Assembly (NCBI GenBank): GCA_002842095.1
Contig: PHCB01000006.1
Location: 3,814-67,813 of the forward strand
Direction: 5' to 3'
Source: a candidate division BRC1 bacterium HGW-BRC1-1
Lineage (GTDB): Bacteria > Sumerlaeota > Sumerlaeia > Sumerlaeales > Sumerlaeaceae
Length of the DNA: 64,000 nucleotides
Both the position numbers and the translations under genes were made by a program. Below, one piece after another: positions 7,063 to 28,706 of the stretch; the stretch's first letter is position 1; each line of letters opens with the position of its first letter. The notes under the pieces were generated by a model, which did no database searches, was not told the DNA's origin, and saw nothing but the letters and a program-made list of their open reading frames with translations.

Positions 7063-7063
7063 G

Positions 7064-10107: not shown

Positions 10108-10185
10108 GATTTCTGTGGTCCCTCCGGGGCTTGATATTTAGGTGAAGGGTTCCCTTGCCCGCTCTGCGGGAAAAAACAATCTGGG

Positions 10186-10251
10186 GATGAAACGGTATTG
10201 CGTGACCGCAGCGCCCTGCGGCGACCGGCGGGGGCGCCGGTCCCACATCAG
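10186..10251. repeat. R1 REP-like element, copy 3, with the same 5' extension as copy 2 (GATGAAACGGTATTGCGTGACCGCAG…GCGACCGGCGGGGGCGCCGGTCCCACAT)
   Basis: Sequence identity to 7081–7144. Lies just downstream of the map-NUDIX operon end. Confidence 0.7.
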
Positions 10252-10290
10252 AATTGAGGGGGCTTACAGGTTCTCCAGTTCCGCGTCATG

Positions 10291-10863
10291 CTATCTGGCA
10301 GTATAACCGATCACCAATCGTTGCGCCTTGGCCAGGGCGCGCCTTAACGGCGGGTCTAACGCGAGGTCAGCAGTTTCGTCCCAGGTGAACCAGCACATGC
10401 CCAGGTGCTCCTCGGGACGGTGGGCTATTACCGCGCCTGCGGGGGCGACCAGCAGGAATCGCAGATCCAGATGTCGATGCTCCGCCACTTCGCCGCGCGC
10501 GGGGATCACGTGCACGTCCACGTCCAGCGGGCGCGGTGCATCTGGATGCGCTTCCAGCCCGCTGATCCCCGTTTCCTCGTGGGCCTCGCGCATTGCCGCG
10601 GACAGCGCGTCCGCGTCGCCCGGTTCGCCGTGACCGCCCGGTTGAAGCCAGCGGTCCAGTTTGCGATGATGTCCCAGCGCCACACGCAACCCCGCGGCAT
10701 CCACCACGATGGCGCTGGCGGTCAGATGCCCCGCTGTTATTGCGCGATCAAAGGGCGCTGCGTGTGCGTCCACAAATGCGCGAATCTCAGCCAGGTCGGT
10801 CGCTTCCTGCGCGTCCTGGGGCTGATGTGCCGCCAACTGCGCTACCAGTTCCGACCCCATCAT
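10291..10863 (-). CDS. NUDIX hydrolase
   Basis: Nudix box GGHGEPGDADALSAAMREAHEETGI. ORF-track frame extends to 10953, but an ATGATG at 10863 overlaps the map stop (ATGA coupling). Confidence 0.7.
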   Translation of the reverse strand: MMGSELVAQLAAHQPQDAQEATDLAEIRAFVDAHAAPFDRAITAGHLTASAIVVDAAGLRVALGHHRKLDRWLQPGGHGEPGDADALSAAMREAHEETGISGLEAHPDAPRPLDVDVHVIPARGEVAEHRHLDLRFLLVAPAGAVIAHRPEEHLGMCWFTWDETADLALDPPLRRALAKAQRLVIGYTAR

Positions 10864-11618
10864 GCGGTCAGAATCACGGGGCCGTCCTCGGTGATGGCCA
10901 CGGTGTGCTCGAAATGCGCCGACACGCTCTTGTCGGCGGAGATCACCGTCCAACCGTCGGCCAGCGTTTTCGTCTTGCCGGTGCCAATGTTCACCATGGG
11001 TTCGATGGCGATGACGGTGCCCGCCTTCAGGCGCATTCCGGTGTCGGTCTTGCCGTAGTTTAACACTTGCGGCGCTTCGTGCATTTCGCGCCCGATACCG
11101 TGGCCGGTGTACTCGCGCACGATGCCGTATCCGTGGGGATCGATCGCCGCCTGAATGGCGGCCGACAGCGTGCCCAGACGCACATCCGGCTTCAGCACGG
11201 CGATGCCCGCATACAGCGATTCCTGTGTTACCTTGAGCAGTTGCGCAACCTCATCCGACACCTTGCCGATGGGGTAGGTCTTGGCGGAGTCGCTGCACCA
11301 ATCTTCGAGAAACAGTCCGCAGTCGATGCTCACCACGTCGCCCTCGGCCAGGTGACGCTTGCCGGGGAAACCGTGAACGATCTCCTCGTTCACCGAGGTG
11401 CAAAGCGTGGCGGGGAAACCATGGTAGCCGAGAAACGCGGGCTTGGCCCCTGCGTCGACAATCAGCTTGTGGGCGATACGGTCCAGTTCGCCGGTGGTCA
11501 CGCCGGGGGAAATGTGCTTTTCCAGTTCGTTGAAAACCGCCCGCAACAGCTTGCCCGATGCGCGCATCTTATCTATCTCGGCCGCGCTCTTTAACCAGAT
11601 GGTTCCGCTGGTTCCCAT
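10860..11618 (-). CDS. map: Methionine aminopeptidase type I
   Basis: …IWLKSAAEIDKMRASGKLL…, with metal-ligand regions GHGIGREMHE and EHT. ORF-track N-terminal extension (to 11771) looks non-coding. AGGAGA Shine-Dalgarno sequence 8 nt before ATG 11618. Confidence 0.8.
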   Translation of the reverse strand: MGTSGTIWLKSAAEIDKMRASGKLLRAVFNELEKHISPGVTTGELDRIAHKLIVDAGAKPAFLGYHGFPATLCTSVNEEIVHGFPGKRHLAEGDVVSIDCGLFLEDWCSDSAKTYPIGKVSDEVAQLLKVTQESLYAGIAVLKPDVRLGTLSAAIQAAIDPHGYGIVREYTGHGIGREMHEAPQVLNYGKTDTGMRLKAGTVIAIEPMVNIGTGKTKTLADGWTVISADKSVSAHFEHTVAITEDGPVILTA

Positions 11619-11789
11619 GGTTGCTGCTCTCCTGCTGTTACCTGAATGTCGGCGGCCGGCCCCACCCGGGGTCACGTCCGCCGATGATACCAGAAACGAA
11701 TCGGGCGACAGCACCCGGGGTTTTCGGCCCGGGGCGGTCGCCCGTCGGTTCACAACTTTGTTAGCCGGCAAAGCGGCCCGTGCTGTGCG

Positions 11790-13205
11790 TTAACGCCAGC
11801 GGGAGCCCGAGGAGCGCTTGAGCGCGAAGCCCTCGTAGTGGCGCATCAGCAACTGGCTTTCGATCTGTCGCAAGGTGTCGAGGAACACGCCCACCACAAT
11901 GATGAGGCCCGTTCCACCCACGAACGCCGCCGCCGCGTAAGGCATTCCATAACTCGTTTCCAGAATCAGCGGCAGCACCGCGATGGCGACGAGAAAGATG
12001 GCGCCCACGGTGGTGATACGCGTAAGGACGAAATCGATGTATTCGCTGGTGGGCTTGCCGGGGCGCTTGCCCGGGATGAAAGCCCCGCTCTTCTTCAGGT
12101 TGTTCGACACGTCATCGGGGTTAAACGATATTGCGGTGTAGAAGTAGCAGAAGAAGCCCGTGAAGAGTGCAAACATCACGTGGTGCATGTTGAAGCTCTT
12201 AAGGATGAGGAAGATGCCCTCGCTCTCCAGACCGGCCCAGCGTTGGAAAAACGCATACAGGTTGTAGGGAGAGTTGCCCGAGAAGAGATTGCCGATGAAA
12301 CCGCCCTGCGGATTACCCGCCGAGACATAACCGGCAATGAAGCTGGGGAAGCTGAGAATGGCCGAGGCAAAAATGACGGGGATAACACCTGCGGTGTTGA
12401 TCTTCAACGGCAGGTAATTCGTGCCGCCCGACATAACCCGTCGCCCCACAACGCGTTTGGCTTGTTGCATGGGGATGCGCCGGGTGCCCTCTTGAATGAG
12501 GATGATGGAGACCGTGGAGACGACGAACAGCACTGCCACGATGGGCAGCCAGATCCACTCGAGGCCGCCCTTGTTCATCTGATAAATCAGCGAGAAGACG
12601 TCTTGGGGATACTGCGCGAGAATACCGAAGGCGATGATCAGCGAGATACCGTTGCCGATCCCCTTCTCGGTGATCCGCTCGCCCAGCCACATGAGAAACG
12701 CCGTGCCCGTGGTCATGGCCATCATGGTTGTGAAGAGGAAAATGCCCGGATACTTACTGCCGTAAATGGACAACCCCTGCGAGAGTAGCACGGTGCCGAG
12801 GCCAAAGCCCTGAAACGCCGCCAGACCGATGGTGCCCATGCGGGTCCAACGGTTGATCTTGCGCTGCCCGAGGGCCCCCTCCTGCTGGATCTTCTGCAGG
12901 CGCGGGAACACGACGGTCATTAGCTGGAGGATAATGCTCATGCTGATGTAAGGCATGATTCCCAGAGCGAAAACGCTCATGTTGCGGAAGGCGAAACCAC
13001 TGAACAGGTCAACAACGGCGAACAAACCGCCGCCGGCACTGCGTTGGTTGTCGATGAACTCGGCCAGCTTGCCGGGATCGATAAACGGCGTGGGGACGTG
13101 AGCGCCCACACGGTACACACCCATTAACAGCAGGGTGTAAAGGACCTTCCGGCGCAGGTCGGGAATCTTCCAGATGTTCTTCAGCGCACTGACGCTCTTA
13201 ATCAC
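11790..13205 (-). CDS. secY: Preprotein translocase subunit SecY
   Basis: 471 aa, 10-TM, MIKSVSALKNIWKIPDLRRKVLYTLLLMGVYRVGAHVPTPFID. Confidence 0.95.
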   Translation of the reverse strand: MIKSVSALKNIWKIPDLRRKVLYTLLLMGVYRVGAHVPTPFIDPGKLAEFIDNQRSAGGGLFAVVDLFSGFAFRNMSVFALGIMPYISMSIILQLMTVVFPRLQKIQQEGALGQRKINRWTRMGTIGLAAFQGFGLGTVLLSQGLSIYGSKYPGIFLFTTMMAMTTGTAFLMWLGERITEKGIGNGISLIIAFGILAQYPQDVFSLIYQMNKGGLEWIWLPIVAVLFVVSTVSIILIQEGTRRIPMQQAKRVVGRRVMSGGTNYLPLKINTAGVIPVIFASAILSFPSFIAGYVSAGNPQGGFIGNLFSGNSPYNLYAFFQRWAGLESEGIFLILKSFNMHHVMFALFTGFFCYFYTAISFNPDDVSNNLKKSGAFIPGKRPGKPTSEYIDFVLTRITTVGAIFLVAIAVLPLILETSYGMPYAAAAFVGGTGLIIVVGVFLDTLRQIESQLLMRHYEGFALKRSSGSRWR

Positions 13206-13298
13206 GGTTCAGGATACCCTCGGAAAAGACTTGGTTCATTACGTAAAAACACGCCCGCTCACTCAGGAAGTGAAAGCGGGCGTGGTCAAGATGCTTTT

Positions 13299-13760
13299 CT
13301 ACTCTGCTTTGGCGCCAGGCGCCACAGCGGTGCCGCCCGCGTTCTCGATTTTTTCCTTGGCGGTACCCGAGAATGCATGGGCCTTTACCGTCAGCTTCTT
13401 GCTCAGGTCCCCGTTGCCGAGTACCTTCACACGCTTGGCGTTCATACGCACCAGACCGGCTTCCTTCAGTAACTCCATGGTTACGTCAGTGCCGTTGTCG
13501 AAAACTTCGAGAGAGGCAACGTTCACCACTTCGAATTCCTTGCGGAAAATGTTAACGAATCCGACCTTGGGCAAACGACGCTGCAAAGGCATCTGTCCGC
13601 CTTCGAAGCCGCCGCCGTAACCCTTGCCGCGTCCGCTGCGCGCTTGAGAACCTTTGTGGCCGTAGCCGGACGTCTTGCCATGTCCACTCGACTCGCCACG
13701 GCCCACACGCTTGCGCTTCTGCATGCGACCGGGATCTTTGCCCAACTCGTGAATCTTCAT
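13299..13760 (-). CDS. rplO: 50S ribosomal protein L15
   Basis: [11 protein letters not shown]…[22 protein letters not shown]; start chosen at MKIHEL (ORF-track extension overlaps rpmD). Confidence 0.9.
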
Positions 13761-13764
13761 CTCG

Positions 13765-14004
13765 TTAGTCCAACCCGTTAGTTTCGGTGTTCTTCGTCTG
13801 GTTCTTGGTAGCTTGCTGCTGATTCTCTTTTTCAACCTTGATCAGATAACCAACCTGCTTCAACATGCCGGCAAGCTGGGGCGTCATGACATGCACGCGG
13901 GTCTGATTGAGGCGTGTGAAACCCAACGCCTTCAGGGTCCGGCGATGTCCGCCAAGGCGGTTGATGCCGCTTTTGATCCAGGTAACTTTGACTGTCTCAG
14001 CCAT
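13765..14004 (-). CDS. rpmD: 50S ribosomal protein L30
   Basis: [39 protein letters not shown]. Confidence 0.9.
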
Positions 14005-14009
14005 CGTAG

Positions 14010-14735
14010 TTACTCCTTACCTTCAGCGTCAAACGCGGAAGTATCATAGTTCATCGGCTCTTCGGAGTCAGAAGCCTCGCTCGCGCCGCCGGATGAAACC
14101 GGGGAGCGACCCAGGACCTGCTCTACCGTCTTGCCGCGGAGGCGGGCGATGCGCTGGGGATCGAACAAGCCACCCAAGCCACTCACCGTTGCCTTTACCA
14201 CGTTAATTTTGTTATTCGTCCCGATGACCTTGGTCAGAATGTCCTGGACGCCGGCCATCTTGAGAACCGAACGCACCGCGGGACCCGCGATGAGACCGGT
14301 ACCTTCAGAAGCCGGACGAAGCATCACGCGCGCTGCACCGAACTCGCCGATGGTCGCGTGAGTGATCGTGCGCCCATGCATGGGCACCTTTACCAGATTC
14401 TTCTTGCCGTCTTCGGCTGCCTTGGAAATGGCCTCGGGAACCTCGTTGGCTTTACCAAAACCCACACCCACGTGGCCTTCGCCGTCGCCGACGACAACCA
14501 ACGCTGCAAAGCTGAAGCGACGTCCGCCCTTCACCACTTTCGCGGTGCGGTTCAGACTCACCAGCTCTTCCTTTAGGTTCAGGCTCTTGGGATCAATGCG
14601 CTCTTCAAGAGCGGCCCACGTCCGGTAGGACGAATCCTGCTGGACCTGCTGCTGCTCAACCGGCTGTTGCTCGGTTTCGTCAGCGATGGGCGCCTCGGCC
14701 GTCGTGTTCTCCGGTGTATCCTGATTGGTGCTCAA
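14010..14735 (-). CDS. rpsE: 30S ribosomal protein S5 (with N- and C-terminal low-complexity extensions)
   Basis: Core [41 protein letters not shown]. Confidence 0.9.
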
Positions 14736-14801
14736 TGTCTCGCCTCGTTTTTCTCAGTCAAATCGTTGTCACCCTTAGCTGGTGACGGGGCAGGGCTTAC
14801 C

Positions 14802-15176
14802 TCAGAACTTCAAGCCGCCCTCGCGGGCAGCCTCGGCAAGCGCCTTCACTACACCGTGATAAGGTAATCCGTTGCGGTCGAAAACAACCGTCTCGATGCC
14901 GGCTTCCTTGGCCTTTGCAGCCACCTCGGCTCCCAACACCTTCGCGTGAACAATGTTCGCAAAACTCTTCTTATCGTCGGTCTTAATCGCCTTGCGATTC
15001 GTCGTTACCGAGACAAGCGTATGGCCCGTGGCGTCATCCACCACCTGCGCATACAAATGCTTCAGGCTCTTGTAAACCGTCAAACGGGGACGAGCCTCCG
15101 TGCCGGTGACCCGCTTGCGGATCCGCATCCGGCGACGATTAAGCCGCACTGTCTTTTGACTTGATACCGTTTTCAT
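14802..15176 (-). CDS. rplR: 50S ribosomal protein L18
   Basis: RLNRRRMRIRKRVTGTEARPRLTVYKSLKHLYAQVVDD. Confidence 0.9.
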   Translation of the reverse strand: MKTVSSQKTVRLNRRRMRIRKRVTGTEARPRLTVYKSLKHLYAQVVDDATGHTLVSVTTNRKAIKTDDKKSFANIVHAKVLGAEVAAKAKEAGIETVVFDRNGLPYHGVVKALAEAAREGGLKF

Positions 15177-15294
15177 GTCATTCCTCTCTCATCTCCACCG
15201 CCTATAGGTGGAGAAACCTGTTGCCCTGTCAAAAACCTCGCGAAAGCCGACCCGGGCGCAAACCGCCCGAACCACGGCCATGAGGCTCTCAGCC

Positions 15295-15834
15295 TTACTT
15301 GCCAGCCTTCTTGCCCACTTTGCGGCGGACCGTCTCCGTGGTATACCGTACGCCCTTGCCCTTGTAAGGCTCCGGCGGACGCTTCTCACGAATCTCGGCT
15401 GCAACCTGGCCAACCTTCTGCTTGTCGTAGCCACTGATGATGACCGACGTCGGCTTGGGGACTGAAATCGTCACGCCCTCGGGCGCATCATAAAACACCG
15501 GGTGCGAATAGCCAAGCTGCATGGTGAGCTTGTTGCCTTCCATGGACGCGCGATAACCAACGCCCTGGATCTCCAACTCTTTGGAGAAGCCGTCCGTCAC
15601 ACCGATGACCATGTTGCGAACAAGCCGCTGCGCCAAACCGTGAAACGCGCGCGCCTGCTTGTCGTCGCCGTTGCGCTTTACGTGCACCGCGCCGTCCTCG
15701 ATTTCCATCGAGGTACGCTGCGGGATGACCATCGCCAGACGCCCCTTGGGCCCCTTGACGCTGATCTCATTCTTATCAATTTTTACGTCGACCCCCGCAG
15801 GGATGACTACCGGTACCTTACCAATGCGACTCAT
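15295..15834 (-). CDS. rplF: 50S ribosomal protein L6
   Basis: MSRIGKVPVVIPAGVDVKIDKNEISVKGPKG; ORF-track start is 6 codons upstream at 15852. Confidence 0.9.
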   Translation of the reverse strand: MSRIGKVPVVIPAGVDVKIDKNEISVKGPKGRLAMVIPQRTSMEIEDGAVHVKRNGDDKQARAFHGLAQRLVRNMVIGVTDGFSKELEIQGVGYRASMEGNKLTMQLGYSHPVFYDAPEGVTISVPKPTSVIISGYDKQKVGQVAAEIREKRPPEPYKGKGVRYTTETVRRKVGKKAGK

Positions 15835-15992
15835 GAGTTCCTGACTTTTCACTCCGGACTTTTGCTTTTATGAAACCTGCCTGACATCGGACACCCTAAA
15901 ACTTCGCTGGCGTCCGCCGGCGGACCCGGTCTGGCGGAGAACCCCTTTTCAGCAGGGGAACTCCCACACAAACCTGAATCTTACCAGCCGTC

Positions 15993-16394
15993 CTACCAAA
16001 CTGTGCAGAGCACCTCGCCACCCACATTACGTTGGCGACAATCGCGCGCCGTGAGAATACCGCGGCTCGTGCTCACAATTGTAATTCCCATGCCGGCCAG
16101 CGTCAGCGGAATCTCCGCTGCACCTGCGTAGCGACGGATGCCGGGCTTCGACACACGTTGCAGACCGTGGATGACACGCTCCTGGTTGGCACCGTACTTC
16201 AGAAAAATACGGATGGGCGGCTTCTTCTTGCCCTTGTTGCTCCAGTAGCAAGCCTTGATGTAACCTTCATCGCGCAGAATCTTGGCGATTTCCCACCGAA
16301 TCTTCGAGTAGGGAACTTCAACCTCTTCTTTGCGGGCGGTGTTTGCGTTGCGGATGCGCGTAAGCATATCGGCAATCGGATCAGTAACTAGCAT
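15993..16394 (-). CDS. rpsH: 30S ribosomal protein S8
   Basis: MLVTDPIADMLTRIRNANTARKEEVEVPYSKI. Confidence 0.92.
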   Translation of the reverse strand: MLVTDPIADMLTRIRNANTARKEEVEVPYSKIRWEIAKILRDEGYIKACYWSNKGKKKPPIRIFLKYGANQERVIHGLQRVSKPGIRRYAGAAEIPLTLAGMGITIVSTSRGILTARDCRQRNVGGEVLCTVW

Positions 16395-16412
16395 TTATCT
16401 TCCTCGCGCCTC

Positions 16413-16598
16413 CTACCATGAACTTTTCGTCACGCCAGGGATTTGTCCCTTGCTGGCCAGGTTACGGAAACAAATACGGCACATTCTGAAGTCGCGCAGA
16501 AACGCCCGCGAACGGCCGCACAGCGGACAACGATTCTGTTTGCGCGACGAGAACTTCGGCTTGATGCGCGCCTTGTATTCTTTTGCTGCCGTGGACAT
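16413..16598 (-). CDS. rpsZ: 30S ribosomal protein S14 type Z (zinc-binding)
   Basis: 61 aa with [22 protein letters not shown]. Confidence 0.9.
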
Positions 16599-16613
16599 TT
16601 AAGGTCTATCTCC

Positions 16614-17276
16614 CTATTTCTCACGGAAGGGGAAACCGAGAAGCTTCATCAGCTCCAGCGCTTCCTCGTCCGTCTTGGCCGTGGTTACAGTTGTTATGTT
16701 CATACCCAACGTGGTGCCGATCTTGTTAAAGTCCAGCTCCATGAAAATCACATGCTCGCGGATACCGATGCTGTGGTTGCCGCGTCCGTCAAAACTCTTC
16801 ATGGGGAAACCGCGAAAATCGCGGATACGCGGGATCGCGATGCGAATCAGACGCTCAAGGAACTCGTACATGCGCAGACCGCGCATGGTGACGAACGCTC
16901 CCACTTGCATGCCTTCGCGGAGCTTGAACGCGCTGATGCTTTTGCGGGCCTTCGTCACACGGGCCTTCTGCCCGGTAATGATGGCCAGATCGCGCGCCGC
17001 TCCTTCGAGAATCTTTATGTCGCGAGTCGCTTCACCCAAACCCATGTTCACCACCACCTTAACCAGGCGGGGCACTTCGTTTATGTTCTTATATCCAAAG
17101 CGCTTCATCATCGCGGGAACAACTTCCTCGCGGTACTTGCGCTTGAAACCCGGTTCGTAATCGCGCAATTCTGCGATCTCCTCGGGCGAAAGGGTTACAA
17201 CGGCTCCCGCCGACGCGTCGTCGACTTGTTTGTCGCCGCCCTTTCCCTTCTTCTTGTCTGCCTTGGCCTCTGCCAT
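16614..17276 (-). CDS. rplE: 50S ribosomal protein L5 (with an approximately 40-aa Lys-rich N-terminal extension)
   Basis: [44 protein letters not shown]. Confidence 0.88.
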
Positions 17277-17381
17277 CTTCTGTCTCGCTATCCTTCCTTT
17301 GTCGGACGACGGCCTTGTGCGTCGCCACTCTTAAACCCTACGACTCTCAGTGCCCGGCGGTTGCCGGCCAACGCTTTCGCG

Positions 17382-17696
17382 TCAGATCACCGTGCCGCAC
17401 TTCTTACAAACCCGCGTCTTGCGACCCTCGGCATCCGTGTTCGTGGAAAACCGAACACCGCGCTTGCACTTGTCGCAAACCAACATCAGGTTAGAGACGT
17501 GAATCGGTGCCTCTTTCTCGATGATGCCACCGGGCTGACCCTGTCCCTTGGCCCGCGTGTGGCGCTTGACCATGTTAACATGTTCAACCACCGCCCGGCT
17601 CTTGGACGGAATCACAAACAAAACCTTGGACGTGGTGCCGCGATTCTTGCCCGCGATCACAACCACTTTATCATTTTTCTTAATTCTCAGCGACAT
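17382..17696 (-). CDS. rplX: 50S ribosomal protein L24
   Basis: MSLRIKKNDKVVVIAGKNRGTTSKV (KOW motif). Confidence 0.9.
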   Translation of the reverse strand: MSLRIKKNDKVVVIAGKNRGTTSKVLFVIPSKSRAVVEHVNMVKRHTRAKGQGQPGGIIEKEAPIHVSNLMLVCDKCKRGVRFSTNTDAEGRKTRVCKKCGTVI

Positions 17697-17712
17697 GACT
17701 ATTAACGGCTCC

Positions 17713-18081
17713 TCAGATCACTTCTGGCGCAAGTGAGATGATCTTCATGAAATTCTTCTTGCGCAGCTCGCGACCCACGGCACCGAAGATGCGTGTGCCC
17801 ACCGGGTCGCCCTGGGGGTTGATGATCACGGCGGCGTTGTCGTCGAACTTCACATACGACCCATCGTCGCGACCGATTTCTTTCGCAGTGCGCACGATGA
17901 CAGCCTTCACCACGGTGCCCTTTTTCACGGTCGCCTCGGGCGAAGCCTCACGCACGCTGCCCACGATGATATCACCGATACGCGCATAGCGACGGCGAGA
18001 ACCACCCAGAACCTTGAAGCATCTGATCTTCTTCGCGCCGGTGTTGTCGGCGACTTCCAGCATCGTATATTCTTGAATCAT
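17713..18081 (-). CDS. rplN: 50S ribosomal protein L14
   Basis: [27 protein letters not shown]; ORF-track N-terminal extension discarded. Confidence 0.9.
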
Positions 18082-18186
18082 CTTATTTACCTGCCCGTCA
18101 CAAGTTACCGTGCGCTCTCTGGCCATTGATCCGGCAAAGCCCACTCGGCACCTACGCGCCCGGGTTATCTGTCCCTTTGGTTGGTC

Positions 18187-18480
18187 CTACTTGGCTCTGG
18201 TCAAAACTTCTTTCACGCGCCAGCACTTGGTCTTGCTCAGCGGACGCGTTTCAACGATGCGAACCGTATCGCCCTCGTGGGCGTCGTTCGTCTCGTCATG
18301 CGCAACCATCTTGGAGGTGCGCTTGATATACTTCTTGTAAAGCGGATGCTTGACCAGACGTTCCACGGCCACAACGACCGATTTGTCCATCTTGCCACTC
18401 ACCACCTTGCCCACGCGTTCCTTGCGGTCTCCGCGTTTGGCTGCGCCTTCGGCGCCTTCGATTTCAGAATTCTCTGCCAT
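18187..18480 (-). CDS. rpsQ: 30S ribosomal protein S17
   Basis: [38 protein letters not shown]. Confidence 0.9.
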
Positions 18481-18497
18481 GTGTGGTCGTCTCCGCC

Positions 18498-18722
18498 TTA
18501 GTTACCGCTGCCGGTGGCCGCTGCGCGCTCGCGCTCGCTGATGGCCTGCTTAAGCCGGGCAATACCGCGCTTCGTGCGCGGAATCTCCGACGTGTTCTCA
18601 AGTTCCTTGGTCGTGGTCTTAACGCGCAAGTGATAGAGAGCCTTTACGCTCTCATCCAGCTTCTCGCGAAGCTCTTCCACGGTCAAACCCTGCATGTCTT
18701 TGCTCTTAATCACGTGAATCAA
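18498..18722 (-). CDS. rpmC: 50S ribosomal protein L29
   Basis: [26 protein letters not shown]. Start overlaps the rplP stop (ATGA); an alternative start MQGL lies at 18695. Confidence 0.85.
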
Positions 18723-19132
18723 CCTTCCTGCCGCTGAATGTAACGGGTCTTCAGCGCCAACTTGTGCGCTGCGAGGGTCATCGCCTGACGAGCCACGTCG
18801 TCGGCCACGCCTTCCAACTCGAACATGACACGGCCGGGCTTAACCACGGCGACCCAATACTCCGGGTTACCCTTGCCCTTGCCCATGCGTGTTTCTGCGG
18901 GCTTCTGCGTAATGGGCTTGTCGGGGAAGATGTTAATCCACAACTTGCCGCCACGCTTCACGTGACGCTGAATGGCCACACGGGCTGCTTCAATCTGGCG
19001 GCTTGTGACCCAGCCGGCTTCAAGAGCCTGCAGGCCAAAGCTGCCAAACGAAAGGTCACTGCCCCGATATGCCAGGCCGCGCCTCTTGCCTTTTTGCACC
19101 TTCCGGTGCTTAACTCGCTTAGGAACTAACAT
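18719..19132 (-). CDS. rplP: 50S ribosomal protein L16
   Basis: [19 protein letters not shown]…[20 protein letters not shown]. Confidence 0.92.
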
Positions 19133-19260
19133 GGTTCAATCCAGTTATCCGTCTCAAAATAACCCGCGCAGGGCCTGCTCTCCGTTGCCGGGGAGCGTCA
19201 TGCGCGAGCTTTAAAAAATTTGTCCATCTCAAAAAACCAGAGCCTTGCGGCCCTTTTCAC

Positions 19261-19560
19261 TTACCTGTTGACTCCAAAAACCAGCGGCTTGCTGGCCGCC
19301 ACACTTTTGGGCATGCGCATCACCAGAACAGCGATCAAACCAAAATCCACCGTGCCGTTGCGTGCATGATACTCAATCTGCTCCACCTCGATATTGGCCA
19401 GAACTTCGTCCTGGTTGCCATCGAGATACTCGTTGATCTTCTCCTCGAGCGACATCTCGTCACCCGCCATGAGGATCCGAACCCTCGCCGTCTCGTCCGC
19501 TCCGATGAGCATTGCCATCCCATCTACCTCCGATCGGAATAAAACCGCGTTGTGTGCCAT
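19261..19560 (-). CDS. Hypothetical 99-aa acidic protein inserted between rpsC and rplP
   Basis: Intact same-strand ORF with coding-like composition (MAHNAVLFRSEVDGMAMLIGADETARVRILMAGDEMSLEEKINEYLDGNQDEV…) filling a 475-nt gap that is normally 10–20 nt. No recognised motif. Confidence 0.45.
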   Translation of the reverse strand: MAHNAVLFRSEVDGMAMLIGADETARVRILMAGDEMSLEEKINEYLDGNQDEVLANIEVEQIEYHARNGTVDFGLIAVLVMRMPKSVAASKPLVFGVNR

Positions 19561-19606
19561 CTGCCGCCTACCGCCGGCTTAACTTAAAAGTCTCTCGAAT
19601 CGTACC

Positions 19607-20293
19607 TTACGCCGTTGGCGTAGGCGTGGGCTCGGGAGCCTTTACCTTCGGAGCCGCCGTGGGTGCCTCGAAAACCTCACCCAGGAAGATCCAAACCTTG
19701 ATGCCGATGAGACCATACTTGGTCTTTGCTTCGGTCGTGCCGTAGTCGATGTTCGCACGAATCGTATGCAACGGCACGCGACCCTCACGATACCATTCCG
19801 AGCGAGCCATCTCGGCACCGGCCAGGCGGCCGCCGCATTTGATCTTGATGCCCAGAGCACCCGCCTTAACGGTGGCAAGCACGGTCTTCTTCATCGCACG
19901 ACGGAAACCGATGCGTCGCAGCAACTGGTTGGCCACGTTCTCGGCCACCAACTGAGCAGAAAGTTCCGCACGCTTGATCTCTTCTATATTGATGTTGATC
20001 TGGCGCTGGGTGCGAGCCTCAAGGACCTTCTTAAAGCCCTCGATCTCTGAACCCTTGCGTCCGATGATGATGCCCGGACGGGCCGTGTGGATGGTAATCT
20101 TTGCGCGGTTCGACGCGCGCTCAATGTCCACCCGGGCGATGCCCGCGTGCTTGAACCGATCTTTAACCATCTGGCGAATGACGAGGTCTTCGTGCAGCAG
20201 GTCACAATAAGCCTGACCCGTTGCAAACCAACGGCTTTCCCAAGTCTTCGTCGTCCCAAGGCGGAACGCTACTGGATGTATTTTTTGACCCAT
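19607..20293 (-). CDS. rpsC: 30S ribosomal protein S3
   Basis: [24 protein letters not shown]; KH domain; C-terminal Pro/Thr/Ala tail. Confidence 0.92.
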
Positions 20294-20308
20294 CGGGTTG
20301 TTCAGTCC

Positions 20309-20677
20309 TTATGCAAAGTTCAGGCGAATTGTTATGTGACACTTACGCTTGCGGATCTTGACGCCACGCCCCTGCGGGGCCGGACGCGTGCGATACTGAA
20401 TCGGTGCATTGTCGACGAAAATGTCTCGTATTACCAGATCATTCACGTCCGACACATTTTTACGCTCGGCGTTTGCTTTGGCGCTCTTCAGCACCGCGAG
20501 AACTTCCGGAGCGGCACTCGGCTTGTAAGTCATCTGCAAGAGCATCAGGGCTTCGCCCACGCGCTTGCCGCGGATCAAATCAACAACATAACGCGCCTTA
20601 CGCGCCGACATATGGCCGAAACGAAGCTTAGCCTCGCTCACCGCGTCGTACTTCTTCACTGTTTTCGGTTTGCTCAT
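20309..20677 (-). CDS. rplV: 50S ribosomal protein L22
   Basis: AKLRFGHMSARKARYVVDLIRGKRVGEALMLLQ. Confidence 0.9.
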   Translation of the reverse strand: MSKPKTVKKYDAVSEAKLRFGHMSARKARYVVDLIRGKRVGEALMLLQMTYKPSAAPEVLAVLKSAKANAERKNVSDVNDLVIRDIFVDNAPIQYRTRPAPQGRGVKIRKRKCHITIRLNFA

Positions 20678-20716
20678 GGTCTCAAGAAATTCCTGTCCAA
20701 GCCTTTCGCCTGTGCC

Positions 20717-21001
20717 TTATTTCACACCGGCGGATTTGGCGGTTTTGCCGCCGTGCGTACGGAAAAGCCGAGTCGGGGCAAATTCGCCCAGCTTGTGGCC
20801 AACCATATTTTCGTTGATGAAAACCGGCAGAAACTGCTTGCCGTTGTGAATGGCGATCGTAAGACCGACCATCTCCGGGGTCACAACCGAGGAACGACTC
20901 CACGTCTTGAGCACCCGTTTGTCACCACTGCTCTGCGCCTGGGCCACACGGGCCACCAGACGTTCTTCAAGGTATGGACCCTTGGTTACGCTACGTGGCA
21001 T
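20717..21001 (-). CDS. rpsS: 30S ribosomal protein S19
   Basis: [16 protein letters not shown]…[22 protein letters not shown]. Confidence 0.92.
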
Positions 21002-21004
21002 CTC

Positions 21005-21835
21005 TTACTTTTGCCCCCTGCGCTTGAGGATGTATTTACTGGTCGGATTCTTCTTCTTACGAGTTCTGTAACCCTTGGTCGGTTGACCCCATGGGCTCAC
21101 CGGGTGGCGTCCACCACTCGTGCGACCCTCACCACCACCGTGGGGGTGGTCGACGGGGTTCATGACAACGCCGCGCACTTCAGGACGCTTGCCCATCCAG
21201 CGCGAACGGCCCGCCTTACCAATGGAGATGTTCTCATGCTCGAGGTTGCCAACCTGGCCAATCGTAGCCCGGCACTCGCGGCTGACGATACGAACCTCAC
21301 CCGAAGGCAAACGAAGCGTGGCGAAGTCGCCCTCTTTGGCCAGCAACTGAACGGCAGAGCCGGCGCTGCGGGCCATCTGAGCACCCTTCATGGGCTTCAA
21401 CTCGATGGCGTGAACCATCGTGCCCACGGGGATGAAGCGAAGCGGCATACAATTGCCCGGTTTGATTTCCGAGCCTTCGCCGCTGCGAATGGGCGTGCCA
21501 ACCTGGACACCAACCGGTGCGAGGATGTAGCGCTTTTCGCCGTCCTGGTAATGCAACAGAGCGATGCGAGCGGACCGGTTCGGGTCATACTCGATGCTGG
21601 CAACCTTCGCCGGCACACCATCTTTATCACGCTTGAAGTCGATCAGACGATATTGACGCTTGTGACCGCCGCCAATCCAACGGCTTGTGATGCGACCGTT
21701 GTTATTGCGCCCGCCCTTTTTGTGCAAGGGACGCAGCAGTGATTCTTCCGGTGTCGACTTCGTGATTTCCGCGAAGCTCGCCACCGTCATGCCGCGACGG
21801 CCGGGGGTAGTCGGTTTAAATTTTTTAACTGGCAT
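21005..21835 (-). CDS. rplB: 50S ribosomal protein L2
   Basis: 276 aa; …[27 protein letters not shown]. Confidence 0.95.
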
Positions 21836-21871
21836 ATCTCTTTAACTTGTCAGCATCGAAAGGTGGTCTTC

Positions 21872-22159
21872 TCAGACCTCTTCGATCTTTTGCCCCTTCT
21901 CGAGGATGACAAACGCTTTCTTCCAGTCTGCCCGGTGACCCTGCGTACGACCCTGGCGCTTGAGCTTGCCCTTCACCACGATCGTATTCACCTGCTTGAC
22001 CTTCACATTGTAAATCTTCTCTACTGCCGAGGCGATCTCCACCTTGTTGGCGGTGCGCGCCACTTCAAACACATACTGGGGCGCATCGTTCAGGTCGGCG
22101 AGAATGGTTGCCCGCTCGGTGATAACCGGTCGGCGAAGGATTTCATAGGGGGACTTCAT
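21872..22159 (-). CDS. rplW: 50S ribosomal protein L23
   Basis: ILRRPVITERATILADLNDAPQYVFEVARTANKVEI. Confidence 0.9.
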   Translation of the reverse strand: MKSPYEILRRPVITERATILADLNDAPQYVFEVARTANKVEIASAVEKIYNVKVKQVNTIVVKGKLKRQGRTQGHRADWKKAFVILEKGQKIEEV

Positions 22160-22788
22160 GATGCGAGAGCCTCCTCGAGTTGCTTCACGGCCTCGGGCGA
22201 AGTGATGAGCACGTCGGCCGTAAGCAGGCTGTGAATGTTGATGTTCTGAACCGGCAACACCAGCACGTTGGGAAGGTTGCGAGCCGCCAGAAGGAGGTTC
22301 GTAGAGCCGCCAATCACGAGGAGCAGCACACGCTGATCGTCACCCACACCGATCGTGGACAACATTGCCTTAAACGCCTTCGTTTTCGGCTCCGTCACCG
22401 TCAGGTCCGACAGCACCTTCACGCGATTCTGTGCGCGGAGATCACTCAACGCACTGTTAAGCGCAAGACGCTTGACCTTCTTGTTCACCTTCTGGTCGTA
22501 GCCACGGGGCTGCGGCCCGAAGATGATGGCGCCACCACGATACTGTGGCGCACGACTTGAACCCTGACGCGCACGGCCTGTGCCCTTCTGACGGAAAGGC
22601 TTGCGCCCACCGCCGCGAACAAAGGCCCGCGTCTTGGTCGAGTGCGTGCCCTGGCGTTGATTGGCCTCGTAGGCCAGCAACGCCTGACGCACTGCGTTTT
22701 TGTTCGGGTCCACCGCGAAGACAGCGTCGGAAACATCCAACGTGCCGGCGTCGGCACCCTTCATATTTATGAGATTCAACTGAGCCAT
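22156..22788 (-). CDS. rplD: 50S ribosomal protein L4
   Basis: MAQLNLINMKGADAGTLDVSDAVFA…RGGGRKPFRQKGTGRARQGS. Confidence 0.9.
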   Translation of the reverse strand: MAQLNLINMKGADAGTLDVSDAVFAVDPNKNAVRQALLAYEANQRQGTHSTKTRAFVRGGGRKPFRQKGTGRARQGSSRAPQYRGGAIIFGPQPRGYDQKVNKKVKRLALNSALSDLRAQNRVKVLSDLTVTEPKTKAFKAMLSTIGVGDDQRVLLLVIGGSTNLLLAARNLPNVLVLPVQNINIHSLLTADVLITSPEAVKQLEEALAS

Positions 22789-22796
22789 GATGACGG

Positions 22797-23552
22797 TTAC
22801 TTACCTACCTTCTTCTTCGAAGCCTTCATCGGGTTCGCCTTGCCCATCGCTGCTGCGCGATCGGCACGCGTCGCCTCCAACATGGCCTGACGGGTCGCCT
22901 TGCGCAAACGCACAGTGGGACGAATCATCAAGAAACCGTTGTTGAAGCCGGGCACCGAGCCACGCACCATGATCAGGTTGCGTTCCTTGTCCGTGCCCAC
23001 CACCACCAGGTTCAAAGCGGTTGAGCGCGCGTCACCCATGTGACCGGCACCCTTCTTGTTCTTCCACGTGCGCGAAGGATAGCTTGATGCACCCTGCGAG
23101 CCGGCGCGACGGTGATACATCGAGCCGTGGGTTTCGGGACCGCGCGAAACATGCCAGCGCTTGATAGGCGACGCGAAACCGCGCCCCTTGCTCACGCCAA
23201 CCACGTCCACGTGGTCGCCTTCCTTGAACAAGTCCACATCCACCGTCTGCCCAACTTCGGGCACTTCGGCCGGGGCGGTACTACCGTTGGCTCCGTCGAA
23301 ACGGAACTCGCGGATCACCCGCAAAACGGGAGCGCCAGCCTTCTTTAAATGGCCAAGCAGGGGCTTGGTGACGTTCTTTTCCTTCTTGTCACCATAACCG
23401 AGCTGCACAGCCTCGTAACCGTCGCTGTCCTTCGTCTTGCGCTGCAAGACAAAGCACGGCCCGGCTTGAATGAATGTCACAGGGACGAGCTTGCCGTCCT
23501 TGTCGAAGATCTGTGACATCCCGAGTTTTTTTCCAATGAGTCCGAGAGACAT
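22797..23552 (-). CDS. rplC: 50S ribosomal protein L3 (with C-terminal extension)
   Basis: MSLGLIGKKLGMSQIFDKDGKLVPVTFIQAGPC. Confidence 0.9.
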   Translation of the reverse strand: MSLGLIGKKLGMSQIFDKDGKLVPVTFIQAGPCFVLQRKTKDSDGYEAVQLGYGDKKEKNVTKPLLGHLKKAGAPVLRVIREFRFDGANGSTAPAEVPEVGQTVDVDLFKEGDHVDVVGVSKGRGFASPIKRWHVSRGPETHGSMYHRRAGSQGASSYPSRTWKNKKGAGHMGDARSTALNLVVVGTDKERNLIMVRGSVPGFNNGFLMIRPTVRLRKATRQAMLEATRADRAAAMGKANPMKASKKKVGK

Positions 23553-23563
23553 CTGCGTTATTC

Positions 23564-23875
23564 CTAAGTCAGCTTGATTTCCACGTGCACGCCGGCGGGC
23601 AGATCCAACTCCGTCAGCGCGTCGAGTGTGCGTTGCGTCGGATCGATAATATCGATCAGTCGCTTATAACGGCGCATCTCGAACTGCTCGCGGGACTTCT
23701 TGTCCACGTGCGGGGAGCGCAATACCGTGTACTTCCTCAGCTTGGTCGGCAACGGAATCGGGCCCGCTATCTTGGCACCCGTACGTTTTGCCGTTTCCAC
23801 GATCTCCTGAACGCTCGAATCGAGCAGACGGTGATCAAAAGCATTGAGATTAATTCGAATTCTCTGTCCGGCCAT
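23564..23875 (-). CDS. rpsJ: 30S ribosomal protein S10
   Basis: [44 protein letters not shown]; ORF-track N-terminal extension (to 23932) discarded. Confidence 0.9.
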
Positions 23876-23970
23876 TGTTCCTGTTCGCGCCCTGCGCAGG
23901 GGGCGGGTGAGTCGCCTTACAGGCCGACCCACCCACCCCGCACACGTAACGGGCTCTCTCTGTAGAGTTA

Positions 23971-25164
<1,194 letters not shown>

Positions 25165-25892
25165 TGCCGAAGAAACCCTCCGTTGATTTTACACGTCTTA
25201 AATTTCAAATGATGAAGCCGCTGCTCTTCGAGCCCCAACCCGCACCGACACTTGCGCACCGACACGAAACAGGACTCAAAAACTTGTGTGAAACCGTTCA
25301 TGGGGGAAGAGAGAAGCGACGAAAGCAAACGGCTAAGACCTCGCCCCTTGCGGGCGAAGACCGTTCGCAAGAGAGGCGATGTAGTTCCACGCGAGTCCAG
25401 CCCGCGGTTGGCTTTCACCGATACCTTGTGAACACTTCGGGAGAAAGAAAAACCTGCCCTTGCCACCCGCACCCGCCCGGTTAGAGGCGCGCACATGCGG
25501 CGTCCGAAGTAGCCCTCGTCTTCTCCCCCTGTTATGAACGCCCAGGAGGCAAACCACCTTAAAGAAGCCCGCACACCCGCACGGTGAGGGAACCGTGAGG
25601 CGATTCCGCCGCCCCGAAGGACAACGAAAAGGAACCGGTGGCCAACGAAATCTTTCCGGGAAACCCGAAAAAACCCCGCCGATCAACACCTGCACACCCA
25701 CTAAATCAAGCCAATGGGCGCAACAAACCCGTGCAGGCACCGATATGGTTACTACACCCCCACAGGGCTATTCAACTATTTCAAATAAATCGTAAATAGT
25801 TGGAACTTAAAGCCGGATTTAATCCTCAGCCGAGATTTTTCGTCCAAGCCGAGGGGCATCCAACTCACCCCCGAGAAGCTGTAAAATTCCTG

Positions 25893-25950
25893 CATTTTAT
25901 TATTGACGTCATGGTTATCATGGTGATATCAGAATGATTCCAGAATCATC
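25893..25950 (+). promoter_or_regulatory. Putative promoter/operator region for the SPFH gene: TTGACG then an 18-nt spacer then GATATC-like −10, followed by an imperfect palindrome AGAATGATTCCAGAATCATCATTCT
   Basis: Pattern read directly in the sequence. The −10 match is weak. Confidence 0.25.
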
Positions 25951-25976
25951 ATTCTTTGCCAAGAGAGCAACACACC

Positions 25977-26867
25977 ATGAACACCGCACCTATTGCCAAT
26001 CATGAAATCTCTGTTAAACCAATCTCGGGTTGGCGAACGCTGCCCTGGGTACTTATCGCCTTCCTTGCCGCTGTGTCTGCCTTCATTTACGGCATCGGCA
26101 TCGAGTCGGTTCTTTTTATCGTCGTCGGCATATTAACCATTTTAGTGGCCGCCGTCGCTTGCGCGGGGTTTGTAATGCTTCCCCCCAATACTGCCGTGGC
26201 GCTGCTGCTTTTTGGGTCCTACCACGGAACCGCCCGCGAAAGCGGATTCTGGTGGGTGAACCCGTTCTACACGAAAAAGGTCGTGTCGCTGCGGCTGCGC
26301 AACCTTAACGGCCCCAAGCTGAAGGTGAACGACAAGGCCGGCAACCCCATCGAAATCGCCTGCGTGGTGGTGTGGAACGTGGAAGACACCTTCGAGGCGC
26401 TCTTCGAGGTGGACGACTACCTCGATTACGTCTCGGTGCAGAGCGAATCCGCCATCCGCCACCTCGCCTCGCAATATCCCTACGATTCGTGGGAGGACGA
26501 CGACATCATATCCCTGCGCGCCAACATCTCTGAGGTTTCAGAGGCTCTGGAAGTGGAACTTCGCGAACGGCTCAGCCGCGCCGGTGTGCGCGTGCACGAG
26601 GCGCGCCTTACGCACCTGGCCTACTCGCCCGAAATCGCTGAAGCAATGCTCCGCCGCCAGCAGGCCGGTGCCATCGTGGCCGCCCGCAAGAAACTGGTGG
26701 AGGGCGCCGTGGGCATGGTGCGCATGGCCCTCGAACAGATCCAGGATGAACACGTAGTGGAGATGGACAACGAACGCAAGGCCGCCATGGTCAGCAACCT
26801 CCTCGTGGTCCTCTGCGGAGAGACCAACGCCCAGCCGGTCATCAACGCCGGCACACTGTATCACTGA
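25977..26867 (+). CDS. SPFH/band-7 (stomatin/HflK/C-like) membrane protein
   Basis: N-terminal TM segment, then an SPFH-like core (…[48 protein letters not shown]…) and a C-terminal helical region. ORF-track start is at 25956; the second ATG (MNTAP) is preferred. Confidence 0.65.
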
Positions 26868-26891
26868 CAGCCGAGGAAAGTACCTGATATC

Positions 26892-27449
26892 ATGCCTTCA
26901 CCAGAAGGAACGCTCATATACGAAGAAACGCAGGGCTTTGGGCAGCGCAGCAACTTTGCGATGCTTCTGCTGGTTGCCCTCTTGATACTCACCGCTGTGC
27001 TTGCCCCCCTCATCGTCATCCTCTATGCCCCACCAGAGGTCCGCCACGAAGCGCAGATAAACGGCATTATTGCCAGCCTCATTACCCTCCTCGGCGGGGT
27101 CATCACCTTTGCCAGCTTGTTTTTCATGCGCATAGAAACACAGGTGCGCACACGCGGCCTGTTTGTGCGCCTGCGCCCACTGCCATGGCGTTTCATAGCC
27201 CCGGACGGCATGGTTGCGCATCAAGCCATTACTTATCGGCCCATGCGCGATTATGGAGTTGGCTACCACCGCAGCCTTCGCAAGAAATGGGTTTGCTTCA
27301 ACGCTTCTGGCAATAGAGGCGTGCGGATCGATCTCGCCGACGGTTCCCACGTTATCATCGGCTCACAATCCCCCGACCGCCTCGCGCGGGCCATCTCGCA
27401 ACTGCGCGGCAGCGATGCCGCCCTCCCCAGGGAGAGGAGCGAACCATGA
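26892..27449 (+). CDS. YdbS-like membrane protein (2 TM plus a C-terminal bacterial PH-like domain), paralog 1
   Basis: Two TM helices followed by a roughly 95-aa domain, RIETQVRTRGLFVRL…IIGSQSPDRLARAISQLRGSDAA. Architecture resembles bPH_2/DUF304 proteins. Confidence 0.45.
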   Translation: MPSPEGTLIYEETQGFGQRSNFAMLLLVALLILTAVLAPLIVILYAPPEVRHEAQINGIIASLITLLGGVITFASLFFMRIETQVRTRGLFVRLRPLPWRFIAPDGMVAHQAITYRPMRDYGVGYHRSLRKKWVCFNASGNRGVRIDLADGSHVIIGSQSPDRLARAISQLRGSDAALPRERSEP

Positions 27450-27979
27450 CACCCCCCGAGGGATCCGCGCTCTATGAGGAAAAACAGCATTTCGGCTGGT
27501 CGATAATGGCAATGGCTGTCGTAGGCGTGTTGGTGGTTACCGTAGTTGCCGCCGTGCTTACCATCAAGCGCGCAGGCCAGGGGTCCGGGCCCATGCCAAC
27601 TGGCGTGATTCTCATGTCATTGGCGCCTTTCGGACTCGTTATTGCCGCCACGCTCCTACCGCTTCTGCTTCGCGTCGAAACACAAGTCCGCACTCGGGGC
27701 CTTTACGTGCGCCTGATGCCCTTCCCGTGGCGTCATGTTCCCGCCAGCGAAATAACCACCCACGAAGCGACCTCGTTCCGCCCCCTTCGCGATTGCGGTG
27801 GTTATGGCATGCACAAGAATTTCCTCACCAAGACCACCAGCTATAACGCCCGGGGCAACCGGGGCGTTCGGATCGAGCTGACCGACGGCAAACGCCTGAT
27901 CATCGGCTCACAAACCCCCGACCGCCTCGCGCGGGCCATCTCGCAACTGCGCGGCAGCGATGCCGCCACCGGCCAATAG
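27446..27979 (+). CDS. YdbS-like membrane protein, paralog 2 (tandem duplicate; ATGA overlap with paralog 1)
   Basis: Same architecture as paralog 1. The last approximately 69 nt of the C-terminal coding region are 98% identical at the DNA level to paralog 1 (27353–27421 versus 27897–27965), while the rest has diverged. Confidence 0.45.
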   Translation: MTPPEGSALYEEKQHFGWSIMAMAVVGVLVVTVVAAVLTIKRAGQGSGPMPTGVILMSLAPFGLVIAATLLPLLLRVETQVRTRGLYVRLMPFPWRHVPASEITTHEATSFRPLRDCGGYGMHKNFLTKTTSYNARGNRGVRIELTDGKRLIIGSQTPDRLARAISQLRGSDAATGQ

Positions 27980-27994
27980 GAGACCCCACCCGTC

Positions 27995-28186
27995 GTGCAG
28001 AAAAAATTCCTCCTGCGAATAAGCCCCAAACTCTACGAACAGCTCGAACGCTGGGCGCAGGAGGAACTCCGCAGCGTCAACGGACAGATAGAATATCTCC
28101 TCCGCGAAGCCGTGCAACGCCACCACCCCACCCAAATCATCGAAGCCACGGAGCCAATCGAGGAAGACGAAGATGTGGATGCTTGA
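27995..28186 (+). CDS. Arc/MetJ-type ribbon-helix-helix DNA-binding protein (63 aa) with an acidic C-terminal tail
   Basis: [36 protein letters not shown] matches the Arc-family RHH pattern (beta strand, then R-S-x-N-x-EI helix). Confidence 0.55.
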
Positions 28187-28323
28187 AAAACTCTCGTGAA
28201 GTAACGACGGGAATTTTACGGCTTAATCCGGTTCGGTTCCATCGCTGGCTTCAGGCCCTGACGCCCTCCTTTTTCATCCCAACTCGGGCGCATGCCAATG
28301 ACTGCGCCTGCCCCCCGACCACC

Positions 28324-28706
28324 TGGGCGGACACACAGGTCCGCCCCTACGATCGGGTCTGGTTTTCCAACAAAGGAATTCGCGTTAATTAGCGTCCATT
28401 AGCGATTCGTTATTCGCCTTGGCGCGGGCTTACGGCACGCATCACGAGAGCGCGGGAATTGGCGCAGGAACGATCGGGGGCAGGAATGCCCCCGCCCCTG
28501 TCAGGAGGAGGACATTCCTTTCCCCCTACCATTCGGTTTGGCGGTGAACGGAACGGTCAAAGAATCCATCTGCGATCATCTGCGCCATCTGCGGATTCAC
28601 TCCGTGGGCACTTGGGCGGACACACAGGTCCGTCCCTAGGATTGGTTTCGGTTTTTCCAACAAAAGAATTCGCGTTTGCGTCCATTTGCGGTTCGTTTGT
28701 TTGCTT
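28324..28706. repeat. Composite intergenic repeat locus A: R4a (28324–28416), R3 hairpin GGGGGCAGGAATGCCCCCGCCCCTGTCA (28476–28503), R2 ATCTGCG heptad triplet (28568–28596) and R4b (28613–28706)
   Basis: R4 is TGGGCGGACACACAGGTCCGCCC (8-bp stem hairpin) …GGTTTTCCAACAAAGGAATTCGCGTT-A-TTAGCGTCCATTAGCG-TTCG. All subelements recur at 32.0–32.25 kb and 33.74–33.94 kb. Confidence 0.75.

Follow-up and report, generated by a model that had tools for sequence, protein, structure and literature searches.

Between the ribosomal-protein genes rpsC and rplP of candidate division BRC1 bacterium HGW-BRC1-1, inside the S10 operon, lies an additional gene that encodes a small protein. The gene was found in a 64,000-nt stretch of contig PHCB01000006.1 (here called the window, for the whole of the DNA analyzed). 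It is translated from its own Shine-Dalgarno site, is under purifying selection, and is embedded in the operon, and its product is an acidic protein with a confidently predicted beta-alpha-beta-beta fold. We regard the product as probably a new, distant form of the Cse60/CprV kind in a new genomic and taxonomic setting, and as a candidate clade-specific translation factor; the databases list it only as "hypothetical".

The preliminary description of the window, made from its letters, had pointed to an intact open reading frame (ORF) on the same strand as rpsC and rplP, two genes that are normally adjacent. Gene calls, together with Pfam matches to the neighbors, bear out the presence of this ORF at 19261..19560 on the minus strand. 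Four more distant outgroup loci confirm the usual adjacency: they lack the ORF and have rpsC-rplP gaps of 29-52 nt. The gap in the window is 474 nt (19133..19606), one fewer than the 475 nt first given for a spacer that does otherwise exist as claimed. The surrounding cluster, also on the minus strand, runs tuf (23971..25164), L3, L4, L23, L2, S19, L22, S3, L16 and then L29, S17, L14, L24, L5, S14, S8, onward to SecY (11790..13205). The features of the immediate locus, in the direction of transcription, are as follows.

19607..20293, minus strand: rpsC (uS3, 228 aa), the upstream neighbor, with Pfam KH_2 and Ribosomal_S3_C domains.
19519..19606, minus strand: spacer from rpsC to the gene, 88 nt up to the ATG at 19518; its fold z-score is -0.11, without significant structure.
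19526..19531, minus strand: Shine-Dalgarno sequence GGAGGT; its distance to the start codon is 7 nt for the ATG at 19518 and 13 nt for that at 19512.
19261..19518, minus strand: preferred gene model, encoding an acidic protein of 85 aa (or of 83 aa with a start at 19512) with a predicted beta-alpha-beta-beta fold.
19306..19512, minus strand: conserved 69-aa core, common to the whole family in the family alignments; predicted local distance difference test score (pLDDT) of the AlphaFold2 (AF2) core about 90.
19264..19305, minus strand: genus-specific C-terminal tail of 14 codons, SVAASKPLVFGVNR, missing in most relatives.
18719..19132, minus strand: rplP (uL16, 137 aa), the downstream neighbor, with a Pfam Ribosomal_L16 domain.

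The length of 99 aa originally assigned to the product was over-extended. A start at 19518 or 19512, for a product of 85 or 83 aa, is indicated by three lines of evidence: the Shine-Dalgarno site, the NCBI model, and the homologues. The ATG at 19560 is replaced by GCG in the nearest relative (locus L008), where only the two later ATGs are present, and the starts of the homologues correspond to the ATG at 19512. The NCBI model, "hypothetical protein CVU37_04480" of candidate division BRC1 bacterium HGW-BRC1-1, is the 85-aa form at 100% identity. A purine-rich, GGAGG-type site also precedes the start in most of the relatives examined.

Evidence that this is a genuine protein-coding gene under purifying selection comes from comparison of 17 distinct coding sequences. 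Wherever synonymous divergence (dS) was unsaturated, the pairwise ratio of nonsynonymous to synonymous divergence (dN/dS) against the window copy was 0.05-0.20, and over all pairs the mean proportion of nonsynonymous differences (pN) was 0.24 as against 0.75 for synonymous differences (pS). Variation is concentrated at third codon positions (0.43, compared with 0.20 at the first and 0.13 at the second). A word-indexed search of 5.8 billion proteins recovered 28 clusters of homologues, 69-85 aa in length apart from fragments and extended calls, all originating from Sumerlaeota/BRC1 or from metagenomes, with the named ones belonging to Sumerlaeaceae or BRC1. An exhaustive profile search of 1.84 billion representatives yielded only 6 clusters at 50% identity, so the family is small and lineage-restricted. 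The selection and the confinement of the homologues together uphold the initial suggestion of an intact, lineage-specific protein gene.

The position of the gene is conserved as well. The carrier loci examined numbered 24 (L001-L022, L028, and L031, drawn from metagenome-assembled genomes (MAGs) at NCBI and from ENA, JGI, and Logan metagenomes); in every one of them the gene adjoins rplP, and it adjoins rpsC wherever the contig extends that far. The check on relatives that had been proposed for the insertion thus found its position fixed in all 24. Gaps to the neighboring genes are down to 12-50 nt in several relatives, the shortest being 12 nt from rpsC to the ORF (L019) and 39 nt from the ORF to rplP (L001), so that co-transcription with the operon, as first proposed, is the only reasonable reading; a promoter scan found no sigma-70-like promoter in either spacer. 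The ORF protein is 53-89% identical to the window copy, similar to L22 (57-93%) and higher than L29 (40-92%), so that, with its fixed place in the operon, its degree of conservation is comparable to that of ribosomal proteins.

The phylum-wide distribution was sampled, through contigs of S3 homologues, rather than counted. The loci that lack the gene include L029, from a MAG labelled "Candidatus Sumerlaeia bacterium", and L030; the L22 proteins of these two are 42-45% identical to that of the window, while no carrier falls below 57%. In the most parsimonious history the gene was gained once, at the root of a Sumerlaeota (BRC1) sub-clade, and became fixed between rpsC and rplP. Two database records among the carriers deserve a comment of their own. 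Locus L028 (JADFCU010000003.1, GCA_017161645.1) is labelled "Candidatus Hydrogenedentota bacterium" and carries a Sumerlaeota-type gene whose product is identical in protein sequence to those of L014-L016; its S3, L16, and L22 are likewise Sumerlaeota-like, and the taxonomic label is probably wrong. In the ENA contig of L002, rplB is called as two ORFs of 122 and 140 aa (1752..2583), probably through a frameshift or assembly error.

Selection and synteny also dispose of the suggestion that the ORF is a remnant insertion, that is, the decaying trace of a mobile or foreign element. In its favor, the G+C content of the ORF (0.51-0.55) is slightly below that of the flanks (0.56-0.60). Against it, a PHROGs scan returned only weak recurrent matches, to two families of unknown function, the ORF is intact and fixed in position in every carrier, its dN/dS is well below 1, and synteny has been kept over deep divergence. 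A decaying remnant is refuted by this combination and retains a negligible probability. A mobile element was separately considered and rejected: there are no flanking terminal repeats around the ORF, and its composition is unremarkable.

What kind of protein the gene encodes is indicated first by its composition. The isoelectric point (pI) lies between 4.4 and 5.1 in all 17 distinct sequences (about 4.6 for the window protein), and aspartate plus glutamate (11-15 residues) exceed lysine plus arginine (6-9) in all members, which therefore lack the basic, RNA-binding character that is typical, though not universal, among ribosomal proteins; the protein itself probably does not bind nucleic acid. 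AF2, supplied with the family alignment, predicts a confident core with the order beta-alpha-beta-beta (in 99-aa numbering, strands at residues 23-32, 53-65, and 71-84 and a helix at 38-48). The residues invariant across the family (in 85-aa numbering, A18, G19, E21, L24, E25, N29, Q47, Y50, H51, R53, and G55) form the pattern A-G-(D/E)-E, L-E, N, Q, Y-H-x-R-x-G. In the model they fall in three places: where beta1 ends and the beta1-alpha1 loop follows (AGDE), in the first half of the helix (LE..N), and at the end of beta2 with its turn (Q..YH.R.G). Since beta1 and beta2 are joined by a crossover helix they should run parallel, and from this it would follow that the invariant residues gather at one pole of the molecule. 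Such clustering in the predicted structure suggests a binding or interface site.

The preliminary description had found no recognizable family, and in the sense of curated thresholds this stands: Pfam, NCBIfam, and PDB sequence searches with the window protein gave nothing above threshold, and the protein does not match Spore_Cse60 (PF10957) at E <=1. It does not stand for remote relationships, where profile-profile comparison gives a reproducible link to Cse60/CprV. PF10957 is the commonest sub-threshold Pfam match in the family, found in 9 of 30 members, co-linear from the N-terminus and with a best E-value of 0.0078. For direct comparison, Cse60 proteins were recovered with an approximate consensus query and validated by their precomputed PF10957 annotation, and 37 of them were aligned. 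Aligned with hhalign, the two families matched at 84.9% probability with the raw alignments and at 88.9% (E 2.4e-6, score 32.8) after trimming; the reversed control scored 8.2 and the highest of 40 column shuffles 17.0.

Structural models point the same way. AF2 renders Cse60, which in Bacillus subtilis is under sigma-E control, as a single domain of about 60 aa with strands at 2-9, 31-42, and 48-59 and a helix at 12-24, an element order identical to that of the 69-aa Sumerlaeota core. Both proteins are acidic, and the invariant or near-invariant positions that they share are a V of beta1, the E, L-E, and N of the loop and helix, and the Y with which beta2 ends. Their lists of structural neighbors overlap, and the overlap includes Alba, the fold also named in the 2026 study that renamed Cse60/YteV as CprV and described it as an acidic 60-aa protein with Alba-like fold similarity (PMC13627676). 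The same study traced CprV self-association to V4, V6, and N20 (PMC13627676), and the equivalent positions in the Sumerlaeota family are V, I/V/L, and the invariant N. Because these self-interaction residues are kept, the Sumerlaeota protein, by analogy, probably forms homo-oligomers through beta1 and the helix.

The two families nevertheless differ in several respects. The Cse60 invariant motif D..HEKDLE...N ... DIKY ... QxxCxSA is shared only in E, L-E, N, and Y; its H, K, and D, the DIK triplet, and C-x-S-A are all replaced. In place of D-x-x-H-E-K-D-L-E and D-I-K-Y / Q-I-Y-C-F-S-A the Sumerlaeota family has A-G-D-E-x-S-L-E-E and V-E-Q-V-E-Y-H-A-R-x-G, and it carries six extra residues between the helix and beta2. 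Its hosts are Sumerlaeota rather than Firmicutes (all carriers are Sumerlaeota/BRC1 MAGs or metagenome contigs), and its genes lie inside the S10 operon and not in sporulation or unrelated neighborhoods. The family is not a member of Cse60 in the Pfam sense, as threshold, hallmark motifs, taxon, and genomic context all differ; that it is a distant relative of Cse60/CprV is probable. In the course of this comparison a Cse60 homologue (P0144, loci L023-L025) was noted among GerQ, YabP, YabQ, and SpoVG in a MAG labelled "Lactobacillales bacterium", a non-sporulating order; one of the two, the label or the supposed lack of sporulation, is open to doubt.

Other small folds were considered as well. 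Dodecins are beta-alpha-beta-beta proteins of about 68 aa that bind flavin or CoA as dodecamers, and their length and topology are those of the Sumerlaeota core, which superposes on them over nearly its full length with a low Z. An oligomeric storage or buffer protein of this type, for a cofactor or a metal, is nonetheless improbable. The structural scores are no better than those of many unrelated half-ferredoxin folds, and there is no match to Pfam dodecin (PF07311) even at E <=10. The tryptophan that clamps the flavin defines dodecins, and no alignment column of the Sumerlaeota family holds a conserved tryptophan. The only sequence-level signal remains the match to the Cse60 profile. Nor does the family belong to Alba proper (PF01918), to which it has no Pfam match; Foldseek E-values are at least 0.08, and the pI is acidic.

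The region downstream of the gene contains a set of hairpins that called for a separate explanation. Those between the ORF and rplP had been noted at the outset, along with T-runs, and are indeed present; a third lies within the ORF.

19231..19254, minus strand: terminator-like hairpin AGGGCCGCAAGGCTCT, situated just past the stop codon; its loop is of the GNRA type, and GG and T6 come next (stem-loop 19239..19254, T6 19231..19236).
about 19156..19208, minus strand: second, longer hairpin (itself about 19163..19208), followed by TTATTTT.
19282..19301, minus strand: third hairpin with T5, inside the 3' end of the ORF (last 14 codons).

These elements raise the possibility of a structured RNA leader, which the preliminary description had named as its fallback: the spacer would act on rplP as a leader or attenuator, and the ORF would be incidental. 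In favor of an RNA element, the window has two or three hairpins accompanied by T-runs; their arrangement is 91% conserved in the closest relative (L008), where the stems are kept and the first hairpin differs in its loop only, and the 3' spacer has a fold z-score of -1.9. Terminator-like sites are not enriched in the region, however, with 15 found and 13.6 expected from shuffles, so hairpin and T-run sites alone are not significant. A T-run follows the post-ORF hairpin in only 3 of 17 lineages, and no Rfam family matches 19050..19700 at E <=1. The RNA explanation had been tied to a pattern in which the spacer is conserved among relatives and the ORF is not, and the opposite was found: the ORF is kept across the family, under purifying selection and with a coding pattern of codon positions, and both spacers vary in sequence and in length (12-182 nt upstream and 39-197 nt downstream). 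With its flanks unconserved, the RNA-leader explanation fails; as far as the ORF is concerned it is largely refuted, and we give it next to no weight.

The hairpins themselves are local tandem duplicates. A 35-nt unit at 19228..19262 recurs as a direct repeat at 19272..19306 with 74% identity, and the motif TTTTGAGAYGGAYAA (GAGAYGGAYAA), itself a repeated copy of the pre-rplP segment, follows two of the hairpins. The spacer between the ORF and rplP, together with the last 14 codons (19145..19306), consists of tandem diverged copies of a single module made up of a hairpin, a T-run, and GAGAYGGAYAA. We read these modules as a genus-level tandem duplication of the pre-rplP segment, and the genus-specific tail of the protein looks like a formerly non-coding copy of the module that was absorbed into the reading frame by read-through. 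The modules lie outside the conserved design of the family, and it is possible that those downstream of the gene partly attenuate or stabilize the transcript in the genus of the window.

The likeliest function, put forward tentatively and drawn from context only, is that of an acidic oligomer which binds the ribosome or basic ribosomal proteins. The gene, acquired once in a Sumerlaeota sub-clade, is co-transcribed with the S10 operon and has a Shine-Dalgarno site of its own for translation, and its protein would be made in step with the ribosomal proteins. Because the product is both produced in this way and acidic, its partner would be a basic one within the translation apparatus. If the partner is the ribosome itself, the protein would be an accessory subunit particular to the clade; if it is instead free basic ribosomal proteins, for instance the neighbors uS3 or uL16, the protein would act as their escort or assembly factor.

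Several known systems offer partial parallels. Accessory genes do occur in ribosomal-protein operons, among them B. subtilis ybxF, which encodes an L7Ae-like protein in the str operon region, and secY, adk, map, and infA in the spc cluster. Like these, the Sumerlaeota gene is a small extra gene co-transcribed with ribosomal-protein genes and kept in position within a lineage, but its product has no sequence or fold relation to L7Ae or to the products of the other embedded genes. Eukaryotes possess dedicated chaperones for ribosomal proteins, Yar1 for uS3 and Sqt1 for uL16, and the present gene lies between the genes for these same two proteins. An acidic protein could shield a basic ribosomal protein in a comparable manner, though the likeness is a functional analogy only, since the folds (ankyrin in Yar1, WD40 in Sqt1) are unrelated. 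We know of no bacterial precedent for a dedicated chaperone of the Yar1/Sqt1 type.

A number of observations weigh against a ribosomal partner or against the relationship on which part of the proposal draws. The protein is acidic, whereas most ribosomal proteins are basic. Its codon adaptation (0.655) lies near the bottom of the values for ribosomal-protein genes, where ordinary genes also lie, and so does not discriminate among ribosomal, passenger, and other explanations. Membership in the operon is no proof of a ribosomal role, as the SecY gene lies in the same cluster of the window. On the side of Cse60, the two family members inspected scored 15-16 bits, below the PF10957 gathering cut-off of 20.7; the confident part of the hhalign match covers beta1-alpha1-beta2 only (35-39 columns), and in global mode the probability is 37%. 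The Cse60 homologues that were checked sit beside GerQ, YabP, YabQ, SpoVG, or unrelated genes and never in ribosomal operons. CprV itself is found not on ribosomes but in a SpoIIIE-dependent focus at the sporulation septal pore (PMC13627676).

Some of these observations speak for an alternative that is nearly as plausible as a ribosomal partner, namely that the gene is a non-ribosomal housekeeping passenger that uses the strong, growth-coupled S10 operon in the manner of secY, adk, map, and infA. Its job might possibly be CprV-like, acting with a DNA translocase of the FtsK/SpoIIIE type at the division septum. The closest detectable relative is, after all, a multimerizing acidic protein of the septal pore, non-ribosomal genes such as that for SecY do occur in these clusters, and acidity is atypical of ribosomal proteins. 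Yet characterized CprV is tied to endospore formation and found mainly in Bacillales (PMC13627676), and the neighborhoods of its homologues, as noted, give no example of residence in a ribosomal operon. Moreover, a position deep in the S10 operon, between two ribosomal-protein genes and kept over deep divergence, couples the gene more tightly than secY, adk, and map are coupled from their places at the 3' end. A passenger role is possible, on the doubtful side.

Other observations were made elsewhere in the window. The uS3 protein ends in a low-complexity tail rich in Pro, Ala, and Thr (19607..19670, minus strand), directly before the extra gene. Two further intergenic gaps of about 105 nt are present in the operon, at 17277..17381 (L24 to L5) and about 18082..18186 (S17 to L14), both on the minus strand, so the operon is generally less compact here than in the outgroup loci. 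L5 (16614..17276, minus strand) is 220 aa long, its N-terminus being extended by some 40 residues in which K, D, G, and A abound, and its Pfam L5 N-domain begins only at residue 64; lengths among relatives range from 180 (L001) to 226 aa, the extension being present in some Sumerlaeota and not in others. Across the whole 64 kb (1..64000) there are no tRNA or tmRNA genes, and no Rfam family reaches the gathering score, including any ribosomal-protein leader in the S10/spc cluster. Three long putative ORFs of 1235, 698, and 615 aa (56381..60088, plus strand; 47494..49590, minus strand; 33903..35750, minus strand), whose true strand or frame may differ, match no Pfam family at E <=1e-5 and may be lineage-specific proteins. 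An 815-aa WD40 beta-propeller protein is encoded at 4615..7062 (plus strand), and a 1074-aa protein with an FGE-sulfatase (formylglycine-generating enzyme-like) domain and a C-terminal CARDB domain at 28686..31910 (plus strand).

Few gene orders in bacteria are conserved as rigidly as that of the S10 operon, and a gene that has kept its place there throughout the history of a clade is for that reason a strong candidate for a new translation-associated factor. The literature searched makes no mention of a gene between rpsC and rplP, nor of the Sumerlaeota protein, and the phylum is uncultivated, without a cultured model. The gene provides a simple synteny marker for the sub-clade of Sumerlaeota that carries it, and the small size of the protein and its ease of expression suit it to binding and structural tests. 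As a probable relative, it would extend the tiny and barely characterized Cse60/CprV family, whose first functional description came only in 2026 with CprV, beyond the spore-forming Firmicutes, and would supply a second independent functional context for the fold. The most specific form of the proposal, a speculative one that we think unlikely to hold in every part, is that the protein is a clade-specific component or dedicated escort of the Sumerlaeota ribosome, an acidic oligomeric protein of the Cse60 fold that docks on the ribosome or chaperones a basic neighbor, uS3 or uL16 for example. If that is true, the Cse60/CprV fold would serve generally as an adaptor for binding proteins, one phylum having recruited it to translation and another to the sporulation septum.
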